From contig NC_092677.1 in NCBI RefSeq assembly GCF_964355755.1, positions 9,694,101 through 9,758,100 on the forward strand: a DNA stretch of 64,000 bases, in the 5' to 3' direction. Positions 18,853-27,841 of the stretch are shown here, piece by piece. Source of the DNA: Antedon mediterranea (lineage: Eukaryota > Animalia > Echinodermata). The position numbers were made by a program, and so were the translations under genes. The notes beneath the pieces were generated by a model that saw nothing but the letters and a program-made list of their open reading frames with translations, did not search any database and was not told the origin of the DNA. The first letter of the stretch is position 1, and each line of letters starts with the position of its first letter.

Positions 18853-21800
18853 CTAATGACAGTTCTGGCAATTTGGCCGACAAAGACGGCCATTTTCTCT
18901 ACAATGACATCCTCCTGATTTGTCTCCCCTGCCCTAAAAATAAAAATATAACATACAATTATCAATGCTGTTTGGAAGTTTTATATTTTTATTGATTTTT
19001 ATATACAGTACTTGTAATCTACACACAATTCAATTTTTATTGCAAAGAGTGCGAATTAAAAGCTATATAATAGAAGTAGAAGTTATTGTTGGTTAGTAAT
19101 TAGTGAACAATCTGTATGTTTTGGTAAAGAGAAAACAAATGTACTAAAGAGTGCACATGTCTTTTGTACAACTGGTTAAATATCAACCTGATAGGCTTGG
19201 CTCATTGGTAGTAAGAAAACCTGCATTGTCCCAACATTTTTCAAGAACATACATATGGTGTGCTACTTGGCCACTGACATATTAACTTAGCTATAATGAA
19301 TGCATAGTGTCCACTCACATTTGGACCCCATCTTGGTCCCTTAGTGACCCAGCATATTTCAGTCTTGCACATGGTACATCTCACCCAATCACAACCGTCC
19401 TTCTTCTGTACAATGATCTTACATTTTGGACAGTGCATGGCGTCTCCATTTCTAACCATTTCCTAAAAATCAAAACATACAATTTTAAATTTGATTTTTT
19501 TCATCAGTAATTTGATCTGTCTTGTACAGGGAAGTAGTGGAGGATCCAAAATGTTATAAAGAAGGAGCCCAGGCCCAACAATGGTACAATGACGTGATTA
19601 ACTAAACCTAATGTTCTATCTTCTGTATTGCAGATTTCAATATTTAGTGGGTCCCTGGCCAGCTTTTTTCCCTCTTTGGATCTGCCTATAGGAGATGACA
19701 CCAAGGAGTTGAACAAAAAATGTTTGGTAACAATAGCTACACTTACTACTATACTTTAACAATCATTTAGGAAAATGTAAACTCACACTGTACAAATAGT
19801 AATCATTGTATTTTTGTCAAGCACCATCATAGAAGGGAAGGGGGGGGGGGGGAGGAGCGGTGGTACACAAGCAGATACCATACCATGGTGTTATTGTAGG
19901 ATATCATGGACAGGTTTACATATTTGATTTCACTGTGTGGTTTGAATAGACCTCCCTCTCACTGTTTGATTTGAGCAGCAACTTGCAACTTACATCCAGC
20001 ATCAATTGTGTTTGCTTAGCTGCTTTATCATTCATAGCATTTATTTGCAACGAATCCTGATATTCTTTACAGTTCATTCCTTCGTGAATGGCTTTACACG
20101 TCAAACAGTTGCTCTTTCCGCAGATCGGGCAAGGGAAGAAGTTGACGTCGTCTTCGTATATGCACCAGCCATGACAGTCCACGGTCTTACAATGGAAACT
20201 GTTGCCTGCTTGAGTCTCGGCAGTTGCGAGGCAACGCTGCAGGTGTTTTTGATATTGCTCATTGTCAACAAGCTGAAAAAAGTAAGTAATTCTGTATCAT
20301 TCTAAGATCACACAGAATAATAATACACATGTCTTATATAAGTCAAAGATGCTCTTCAGGTGGATGCCATCCTCAAATCAGTAGTAGTAATTAATACAAT
20401 TGTTTGTTTTTTTTATTAATGTATACGTTTACTTGTTATGGCCCAGAGATCCCGAAATAAAAGATTAAATAAATAAATATATATCTGTTTCATTTGTATT
20501 TTTAATATTTCCACTTACTGCTCTGATTTCGCGGTCTTGGATTAAAGCTTCGCAAGAAAATTCATTGTCCTGAAATGGACACTTGATTTCAGGTTCTTCA
20601 CAGACAGAAATATGTCCTGTTAGACAGTCTCTAAAAATGTAATCAAATTAAACAATGAATAAAATAAATAAATTAATAGTTTGCCAGTCATTTCATTCAC
20701 TACTGTATATACATTTATTTATCACCCCTAATTTAGGAAATCTAAGTGGTCCTCCAACGCTGGAGGCCTCTGCCATTCTTAGCCATAGCCTCAAGGGCCT
20801 CATAAGCTCTGGGGCCCTGTGTTTAACCATGGAGTAATAATTATTACTCAATGATTTAACCATTGAGCGCTCATAACCATTATGCCACTGGTTGTTAATG
20901 ATAACTATAAGTGAATTCATTAATTATCCTTCTTGAAATTGTCAACCCTTTTCATAGAACAACTATTAATACAATATAGAGAGTACTCAACACATATAAA
21001 ATCTAGTCTTTGTGAGTGGAGTGGTTTTTCATGAGAAATGATTCCGAAATCCAACCGACTTTGAACCCAGGACATTGGGATCAAAACCAATCATATTAAC
21101 CACAAAACTTTTAACTTCTGTAATCTTACTTGCAAAACGAGTGTAGGCATTCCCGCAGAGTGATGCCTTCTCCAGCGTCAAAGTCATCGTAACATATCAA
21201 GCACGTAAAAGCTTCGTTATTTGGTATTACGTCCAACTGGTCGTATTCTTGCAGACGCTCAAAATTTAAGACAGCTGCCTGTCGATCGGCTTCCTTTATC
21301 TATTTTTCAAAATATTTTACATCAATATAAATTATTTTTTAAATCAAATTTCTGTCCCTTCAATCTCAAAATATACAGCAGACAAGATGATTTAATTTTA
21401 CATTAAAAAAACAGGCAAAAAAAAAATACACTATGTAAACTACACAATTTCATTTGCTTTTAAAGTTATTTTTTATTTTTGCTGTTTTGTTTTTGTCTAA
21501 TAAACTGCTTCATACAACAAACGCATAATCATGCACCGTATTACAATAATGTGGTATTTATATTATTATCTAATTTTACAACTACACTTTCAATGATTTT
21601 TTTTTTCTTAATGGAATGTTAATTCTCCCAAATTTGATAAAATATCAACAACTTAATCAAGTATCATTTATTATCATTTTAATATTAATATTTAATATTA
21701 ATATTTAATATTAATTTTACAGGAATAGAAGAAATTCTAACCCATGGGCAGATCCACCTTAAATTTCGCAAAATCGTAATGCAAAAGACAGGACATCAAA

Positions 21801-27800: not shown

Positions 27801-27841
27801 CCAGGAGCAGATCCGAGAACACTATATTCTTCATCAAGCAT
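18853..27841 (-). CDS. RBCK1: SHARPIN/RBCK1 (HOIL-1)-related LUBAC subunit: PH-like, LTM, UBL, NZF, RING1-IBR-RING2; 665 aa
   Basis: 13 in-phase exons: 27841-27689, 27300-27129, 25675-25592, 25234-25081, 24644-24551, 23712-23541, 23422-23220, 22928-22749, 21299-21130, 20630-20519, 20272-19994, 19462-19319, 18933-18853 (1998 nt). Motifs: [77 protein letters not shown]1 [17 protein letters not shown]2 [29 protein letters not shown]-terminus GGCHC...CQNCH, as in HOIL-1. Confidence 0.93.
22312..22413 (-). CDS. Candidate alternative terminal exon after the NZF exon, giving an RBR-less SHARPIN-like isoform of 437 aa
   Basis: Strong polypyrimidine acceptor (TATTTTTTTATTTTTAG). Phase 0 matches the NZF-exon donor at 22749. 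The 33 GC-richer codons read [33 protein letters not shown], then TAA, with an overlapping AATAAA (22312-22307). Confidence 0.6.
   Translation of the reverse strand, partial: DDLQGSGLLVGGGDGLVFEPQPLISFQEEENNF
24848..24993. mobile_element. Tourist-like MITE family D copy
   Basis: Left TIR AGCTCTGTCTACACTATCAAA, degenerate right TIR. Confidence 0.7.
26288..26319 (-). promoter_or_regulatory. Pair of consensus NF-kB sites in the intron after the PH-domain exons of the SHARPIN/RBCK1 gene
   Basis: GGAAATTCCC at 26288-26297 (reverse complement GGGAATTTCC) and GGACTTTCCC at 26310-26319 (reverse complement GGGAAAGTCC). Confidence 0.5.
26811..27115. mobile_element. Kolobok-like MITE family B copy
   Basis: TTAA|AGATGCATTGTCCC...GGGGACAATACATCT; internal sequence shared with other copies (ATAGTTATCCACT, AAAACTACAAAAT). 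Confidence 0.7.

Follow-up and report, generated by a model that had tools for sequence, protein, structure and literature searches.

Known LUBAC accessory subunits and the crinoid locus

LUBAC, short for linear ubiquitin chain assembly complex, is usually presented as three separate gene products, SHARPIN and HOIL-1L (RBCK1) being the accessory subunits, with functions in immune signaling, that accompany HOIP. A survey of the RBR family by Marin in 2009 is said to have proposed an origin of Sharpin from the HOIL-1 lineage, and a zebrafish gene, shrprbck1r ('sharpin and rbck1 related'), was reportedly described by Landgraf et al. in 2010 as joining the domains of SHARPIN and RBCK1. We analyzed a stretch of 64,000 nucleotides of the crinoid Antedon mediterranea (contig NC_092677.1, positions 9,694,101 to 9,758,100; hereafter the window), in which a single minus-strand gene encodes PH, LUBAC-tethering motif (LTM), UBL, NZF and RBR domains, and may well supply both accessory subunits of the crinoid complex through alternative forms.

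In the passages drawn on here, a survey of Aplysia californica (2022) reports HOIP and HOIL1 and no Sharpin gene, and proposes one of the four isoforms of the HOIL1 locus LOC101863809, devoid of the TRIAD/RBR, as a functional analogue of Sharpin (PMC9334734). The crinoid gene is similar in both respects, with no separate Sharpin gene found in protein searches and a predicted RBR-less isoform. It differs in that the crinoid protein has a PH domain, whereas none is detected in the Aplysia protein (record P0030), and the Aplysia account consists, in those passages, of one domain-annotation remark without exon mapping, tree, synteny or cross-phylum comparison. Fly LUBEL, as presented in the excerpt used (PMC5090701), is a case without both accessory subunits.

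Regarding the mammalian proteins, the crinoid protein shares with HOIL-1L/RBCK1 the LTM, the UBL, the NZF with its tail, the RBR with a cysteine at the catalytic position and the Cys/His extension, the annotated 549-residue isoform X3 having the same layout; on the contrary, HOIL-1L has no PH domain and its NZF carries T-F in place of T-M. With mammalian SHARPIN it shares the PH superfold, LTM, UBL, NZF and the MAF1 neighbor, a layout that the predicted 437-residue form would reproduce, although mammalian SHARPIN has a gene of its own, which contains no RBR exons, and the HOIL-1-type NZF tail, expected in the crinoid short form, is missing from the monotreme and pangolin proteins. The same PH-LTM-UBL-NZF-RBR order, with a phase-0 intron after the NZF exon (from read-through partials), is displayed by SHARPIN of birds, gecko and frog and by the Branchiostoma 'SHARPIN' CAH1270746.1. 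Nonetheless, the RBR-bearing vertebrate proteins fall inside the SHARPIN clade and are post-duplication, while neither paralogue clade includes the crinoid gene.

Gene structure and domain composition

Thirteen minus-strand exons, from 27841 to 18853, join in a single open frame of 1998 nt (665 residues plus stop), whose translation is letter-identical to RefSeq XP_071958273.1/XP_071958274.1 (record P0091), annotated as 'RBCK1-like isoform X1' of Antedon mediterranea. Exon 11 used as search query also retrieved a 100% identical Antedon mediterranea protein named RBCK1-like. All 12 introns end in an AG acceptor and 11 begin with a GT donor, the remaining one, after exon 5 (24551), having a GC donor; this GC-AG intron spans 24550-23713. 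The Antedon RefSeq cluster comprises three isoforms, X1 (665 residues), X2 (664) and X3 (549), and the loss of one residue in X2 is explained by a tandem acceptor of exon 7 (23422-23419). The DNA of the window is AT-rich and eukaryotic (28-41% GC). The exons are the following, where run X1 is a sequencing run considered below:

27689 to 27850, minus strand: exon 1 (coding), acceptor 27850, ATG 27841; residues 1-51, first half of the PH superfold; as in RefSeq isoform X1
27129 to 27300, minus strand: exon 2; residues 52-109, second half of the PH superfold; a piece of a run X1 contig ends at the exon acceptor
25592 to 25675, minus strand: exon 3; linker containing M117 (25652-25650), where the annotated PH-less isoform X3 (549 residues) begins
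25081 to 25234, minus strand: exon 4; LTM, residues 137-178 (PF25393)
24551 to 24644, minus strand: exon 5; start of the UBL, followed by the GC-AG intron; identical to RefSeq
23541 to 23712, minus strand: exon 6; remainder of the UBL, to about residue 265 (PF00240); a run X1 piece ends at the exon donor
23220 to 23422, minus strand: exon 7; proline-rich linker, tandem acceptor
22749 to 22928, minus strand: exon 8; residues 345-404, NZF with HOIL-1-type tail, phase-0 donor; a run X1 piece is bounded at both ends
21130 to 21299, minus strand: exon 9; helical linker, then the beginning of RING1
20519 to 20630, minus strand: exon 10; remainder of RING1
19994 to 20272, minus strand: exon 11; IBR; a run X1 piece ends at the exon donor
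19319 to 19462, minus strand: exon 12; RING2 with DGCDW, C615 at 19393-19391
18099 to 18933, minus strand: exon 13; Cys/His C-terminal extension ending in CQNCH, stop 18855-18853; 3' untranslated region (UTR) to at least 18099 (849-nt run X1 contig, 18099-18933)
28716 to 28800, minus strand: candidate upstream first exon, with a provisional 5' end; best donor-like site 5' of exon 1 (28716, strong)

A minus-strand ATG at 28752, upstream of donor 28716, is in frame with exon 1 and would add 15 residues, the RefSeq start being 27841.

An earlier reading made from the sequence alone (the sequence-only reading) had claimed one 13-exon frame running from a PH-like domain through LTM, UBL and NZF to a HOIL-1-type RBR, and the RefSeq identity bears this out, including the splicing of exons 1-2 to exon 3, which the independent annotation also contains. 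It had further taken the N-terminal ~105 residues to be PH-like, a view with which fold comparisons agree. Pfam Sharpin_PH matches exon 2 alone weakly (12.7 bits, E 0.11, cut-off 27) and is absent from the matches listed for the whole protein, and the hemichordate relative exceeds the cut-off at 41.4 bits. The model of residues 1-112, built on a 10-row alignment with three vertebrate SHARPIN rows and hence not fully independent of SHARPIN, is confident (predicted local distance difference test, pLDDT, 90.6) and shows seven strands and one helix. Foldseek placed EVH1 and Ran-binding domains on top and the SHARPIN PH domain (4emo) at rank 6 (template modeling score, TM, 0.72), while a wider structure search gave Z 16.1 for RanBP3 and Z 12.9 for 4emo (root-mean-square deviation 2.3, 97 aligned residues), the 19-20% identity of the latter being the highest among the 50 matches listed. 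Residues 1-110 are thus modeled as a PH superfold, and a specific kinship with SHARPIN is argued from position, the hemichordate Sharpin_PH match and the remaining protein.

With respect to this domain (27129-27841), it is structurally nearest to EVH1/WH1 and Ran-binding domains, a coral relative (proteins P0059 and P0240 compared) scores over the cut-off of Pfam WH1 (25.1 bits, cut-off 22.4), and almost every row of the alignment has W25. The SHARPIN PH domain may derive from an EVH1 domain binding proline-rich peptides.

The LTM reached 27.4 bits with PF25393 on exon 4 alone (cut-off 27.5, E 3.2e-6) and 22.2 bits in the whole protein; exon 4 by itself as query matched no LTM structure by sequence, and residues 136-279, the LTM-UBL module, matched chains A and C of 5y3t upon comparison with PDB sequences (chain A, E 4.6e-19). 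Both the UBL (PF00240, 32.3 bits, E 8.4e-8) and the NZF (PF00641, 29.5 bits on exon 8 alone) are over their cut-offs, and the NZF with its HOIL-1-type tail (residues 345-395) matches HOIL-1L NZF 3b08 chain B over 51 residues (E 8.3e-11). Residues 398-665, comprising RING1-IBR-RING2, align with the HOIL-1 RBR of 8eaz chain A (E 9.7e-100), with C615 of DGCDW at the catalytic position, occupied by Ala in 8eaz and by Cys in 7yuj, and a HOIL-1-type Cys/His extension closes the protein with CQNCH. Pfam and the 8eaz alignment thus recover the complete RBR that had been read from the DNA. By sequence comparison, the protein is a predicted RBR ligase of the HOIL-1/RBCK1 type, having an RBR with a catalytic-position Cys, an LTM-UBL module and an NZF with tail.

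A candidate last exon and a predicted RBR-less form

21481 to 22413, minus strand: candidate alternative last exon; 33-residue acidic tail, stop 22314-22312, ~830 nt of 3' UTR, AATAAA at 21477; exon 8 as its inferred partner

Five sequencing runs cover the region, none recorded as RNA, and four of them were compared; RNA is a guess for run X1, while runs X2-X5 are of unrecorded kind and have contigs that continue through introns. Run X1 behaves like spliced RNA with some unspliced background, as reflected by a 786-nt MAF1 contig that, as a splicing control, equals exactly 519 nt of an exon 1 piece plus 267 nt of exon 2, and by all six exonic single-nucleotide polymorphism rows, which point to piece ends ≤2 nt from predicted splice sites. 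In this run, a contig of 963 nt has 932 nt at 22412-21481, within the intron that follows the NZF exon, and its first 31 letters elsewhere; its depth is 86.6, whereas contigs in introns have 3.6-6.2. Among the 71 AGs of that intron, the one at 22413 is the top acceptor and, with a leave-one-out matrix, scores 14.8 versus -0.7 to 13.5 for the 13 genuine acceptors of the gene. Depth in the bin 22204-22720 was 38.7, the expectation for an exon beginning at 22413 being 41.2.

Joining exon 8, which would be the last exon common to the long and short forms, to 22413 adds 33 residues and then a stop, yielding a predicted 437-residue PH-LTM-UBL-NZF protein with no RBR. The alternative last exon, claimed previously without coordinates, is in this way located at 22413 to ~21481 by the run X1 contig and the acceptor score. 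Support for splicing from the NZF exon to a last exon within the following intron, with loss of the RBR, comes from one run and from the data on other animals presented below. An acceptor near 22690 was dropped owing to its low score and lack of contig support, and intron retention after exon 8 was rejected because the bin depth fits an exon start at 22413 instead. The tail contains a putative clathrin-box-like stretch.

The PH-less form

Annotated isoform X3 (549 residues) begins at M117, in exon 3, and so carries no PH domain; the PH-less isoform of Anneissia begins at the equivalent Met, and N-truncated forms are annotated beside full-length ones in 6 of the 10 clusters examined first. The internal promoter that the sequence-only reading had considered was not confirmed as a sequence feature; intron 2 contains donor-like sites, which show no promoter. 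Run X1 contig depths (exon 2, 37.1; exons 6-8, 112.8; exon 11, 79.8) cannot rank gene parts and were unused for the promoter question, while the contigs listed in intron 2 (25871-26184 and 26418-26944) are at background depth and say nothing about absence. Of the former proposal that one locus makes SHARPIN-like, HOIL-1-like and full-length forms, the RBR-less last exon and the annotated PH-less form are supported, and the internal promoter stays a candidate.

Architecture and isoforms in other animals

The PH-LTM-UBL-NZF-RBR order was found in another crinoid, sea stars, sea urchins, a hemichordate, amphioxus, a coral, a sea anemone, frogs, a gecko and many birds, and the five-domain layout is common in public annotations. 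Three of 10 further clusters, all of them from molluscs, contain RBR-less RefSeq isoforms:

Mytilus galloprovincialis, XP_076111380.1: RBR-less RefSeq isoform
Mytilus edulis, XP_071176915.1: RBR-less RefSeq isoform
Mya arenaria, XP_052816642.1: RBR-less RefSeq isoform
Haliotis rubra, XP_046542361.1: RBR-less RefSeq isoform

Each of these four agrees with its long form up to where the NZF exon ends, or one residue further, and then continues with its own tail, and in Haliotis rubra a single gene has long, RBR-less and N-truncated forms. The PH domain is weakly detected in Mytilus, Mya and Haliotis (E 0.008-0.3), and domain search did not detect it in oysters or in the Aplysia protein mentioned above. 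A search with a profile of the N-terminal domain returned three more RBR-less records ending at the same point, which the tree places with sea stars (P0115), with corals (P0123) and in the vertebrate SHARPIN clade (P0120), each of the three being seen as a short form alone. In birds and a coral, read-through partials confirmed that a phase-0 intron follows the NZF exon. Falco isoform X4 is ambiguous as an RBR-less form, and the Nematostella 575-residue record P0152, together with bird and coral partials ending in V after the junction, was set aside as split or read-through models rather than isoforms.

Mollusc tails are related, none of 1000 shuffles being as good for Haliotis against each of two bivalves. 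Similarity of the P0120 tail to the SHARPIN ends of platypus, echidna and pangolin is weak (1, 2 and 8 of 1000 shuffles, with 45 pairs tested). The position of the branch point is conserved across phyla, shared descent of the exon being no more than a possibility; since the crinoid tail resembles none of the 9 other tails compared, the exon could have originated repeatedly.

Some further features of the short proteins were observed. A five-residue motif just past the NZF exon is common to the vertebrate short form, the falcon isoform and pangolin Sharpin (among P0120, P0174, P0241, P0242 and P0294), and a second motif, short, acidic-hydrophobic and possibly LC3-interacting, occurs both in the vertebrate short form and in monotreme Sharpin. 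A teleost protein with the PH-LTM-UBL-NZF layout and no RBR, P0134 (XP_067308285.1), bears the name RBCK1 but falls with mammalian SHARPIN in the tree (97/97), possibly due to shared loss of the NZF tail and to missing columns; an independent loss of the RBR in teleosts is possible.

Phylogenetic position and MAF1 linkage

In a 41-row tree, vertebrate rows form one clade (100/99) that divides into RBCK1 (98/91; two rows only, eel and sawshark) and SHARPIN (100/96), deep branches being weak. The SHARPIN clade holds both the mammalian RBR-less proteins and the RBR-bearing ones of birds, gecko and frogs. Approximately unbiased (AU) tests on 17 full-length rows, with constraints that also forced deuterostomes together, rejected the union of invertebrate deuterostomes with SHARPIN (p-AU 8e-13) as well as with RBCK1 (p-AU 1.2e-11), so one-to-one orthology was found with neither vertebrate gene. 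As far as these sequences indicate, the tree places the SHARPIN/RBCK1 duplication inside vertebrates.

29073 to 30965, plus strand: MAF1, 5' part; exon 1 to 29591, ATG 29509; exon 2 29896-30162; Pfam Maf1 E 2.3e-20 and 3.9e-15

MAF1 (29073-32700, plus strand) lies head-to-head with the gene, and they likely share a promoter region, because the start codons (27841 and 29509) are only 1.67 kb apart. In mouse, Maf1 is immediately 5' of Sharpin, as given in the portion of the report used (PMC7371178). In view of the tree, the AU tests and this linkage, the gene is best read as co-orthologous to both SHARPIN and RBCK1, occupying the SHARPIN position beside MAF1. The unduplicated, ancestral-type gene envisaged by the sequence-only reading is therefore well supported.

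Proposed mechanism and alternative readings

We consider it likely, with a rough probability of 0.55, that the locus supplies both LUBAC accessory subunits of the crinoid via its long, PH-less and predicted RBR-less forms. The long form (665 residues, PH-LTM-UBL-NZF-RBR) would be a ligase form, as predicted from its sequence, the PH-less isoform (549 residues) would take a HOIL-1-like role, and the predicted RBR-less form (437 residues) a SHARPIN-like one. Since one gene makes all products, two of them would have to pair through identical LTMs, by analogy with the mammalian LUBAC structure in the part of its description used here (PMC6044281), and together they would then place one UBL on each HOIP UBA module, HOIP binding, assembly and activity being extrapolated from mammals. 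How many HOIL-1-type catalytic domains and PH domains a complex carries would be set by which last exon is used. After the vertebrate duplication, RBCK1 would have lost the PH domain, and in mammalian SHARPIN the short form would have become fixed. Structure prediction for two LTM-UBL copies together gave scores of 0.26 and 0.23, relative to a mark of 0.32.

A bolder and more tentative extension, which we would not favor over its negation, is that the last-exon switch goes back as far as the divergence of corals and bilaterians and enabled both LUBAC accessory subunits to be made from one MAF1-linked gene until duplication in vertebrates froze two isoforms as genes, RBCK1 representing the PH-less isoform and mammalian SHARPIN the RBR-less one. 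The last exon of mammalian SHARPIN would then come from the alternative exon, perhaps still used by the RBR-bearing SHARPIN of other vertebrates, for which the comparison of the P0120 tail with mammalian ends is cited.

Several observations weigh against a division of roles among isoforms of one locus. The exon 8-22413 junction is inferred, and is not among the 15 listed of 281 joint rows, which are repeat-filled; transcript evidence for the RBR-less Antedon form comes from one run whose RNA status is guessed; and an A-rich tract (A at 14 of the 20 bases that follow) lies at the end of the 963-nt contig, beside the AATAAA, making internal priming possible. RBR-less members numbered 0 of 35 in the first 10 RefSeq-derived clusters, including 0 of 3 for Antedon, no RBR-less Antedon protein was found in a search over 301-961 residues, and the crinoid 33-residue tail is similar to none of 9 other tails compared. 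The clusters of octopus (12), Montipora (6) and frog (1) likewise had no RBR-less isoform, nor was one found among the members listed for three of four bird clusters. PH-less forms are automated annotations, and the T-M of the crinoid NZF departs from the T-F of HOIL-1L. Birds, gecko and frogs retain PH and RBR after the duplication; therefore, the SHARPIN position needs no RBR-less protein. Finally, the phylogenetic argument counts just the two RBCK1 rows, together with the constraint imposed on deuterostomes.

This persistence of the RBR in non-mammalian SHARPIN also fits the main rival explanation, in which the isoforms are real, LUBAC is built from two RBR-bearing copies, full-length or PH-less, paired by their LTMs, and the short form acts outside LUBAC or as a regulator restricted to certain tissues, implying no division of labor between SHARPIN and HOIL-1. 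The short form is unannotated in many clusters, and the pseudo-two-fold relation of the mammalian LTMs, as described in the excerpt of PMC6044281, would suit an ancestral homodimer of any isoform. We nonetheless regard it as rather unlikely, since molluscs, an asteroid, a coral and a vertebrate all show this branch point, the mollusc tails are conserved between Haliotis and two bivalves, and the short form would retain the LTM, UBL and NZF, all that mammalian SHARPIN uses in the complex.

Quite improbable is that the 22413 exon is unproductive in the crinoid, representing an extended exon 9 or an internally primed intermediate with a premature stop that is degraded. The A-rich contig end, the single run, the unrelated tail and the lack of a short form in the Antedon RefSeq-derived cluster would all agree with it. 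However, depth in the bin 21170-21686 (69.2) is closer to the model of a terminal exon (60.6) than to run-on into exon 9 (90.9), an AATAAA stands at 21477, the 22413 acceptor outscores all 13 genuine ones, and the asteroid record P0115 is a complete short form. A separate SHARPIN-like or RBCK1-like gene elsewhere in the genome, which would make this locus one of two subunit genes, is highly improbable, for although Mya arenaria has two annotated loci and distant paralogues escape word-based searches, protein searches returned a single Antedon cluster and no second crinoid-like protein among the 337 retrieved, the duplication maps within vertebrates, and the Aplysia survey, in the passages used, has no separate Sharpin gene (PMC9334734).

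Relation to the literature and implications

The novelty implied by the sequence-only reading was overstated, as the architecture is widespread, including post-duplication birds, gecko and frogs, and the idea of an isoform acting as Sharpin is published for Aplysia in the survey passages already cited (PMC9334734). Isoform use as read here, supported by one Antedon run and mollusc annotations, was thus anticipated in print. In the literature covered, which leaves most subscription journals outside, no cross-phylum account of the last-exon switch nor of invertebrate MAF1 linkage was found, and the portions used of PMC9527308, PMC9084887, PMC6044281 and PMC5090701 do not discuss the origin of the SHARPIN/HOIL-1 pair.

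If true, isoforms of one pro-orthologue would constitute a third LUBAC design, in which splicing decides the count of HOIL-1-type catalytic domains per complex; it would explain the pseudo-two-fold pairing of two LTMs and give an example of duplicate genes dividing ancestral isoforms. Names should be handled with caution, as an intact RBR is present in the 'sharpin' of birds, a gecko and frogs, and genes called 'RBCK1-like' in invertebrates correspond to both mammalian ones.

Other features of the window

Exons with a Rubicon homology domain (Pfam RH_dom) lie at 8068-11830 on the plus strand, convergent with the gene, and those of an anoctamin gene (Pfam PF04547) at 36853-43772, also on the plus strand. 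An open stretch of 386 codons on the minus strand (14298-15455) contains a hydrophobic Cys-containing segment and has no Pfam match. High-copy interspersed repeats in introns 2-4 (24836-24930, ~25438 and 26980-27116) show very high depth in all four runs compared, and tandem arrays occur near 30.4-30.7 kb (30360-30730) and 54-55 kb (54000-54900).

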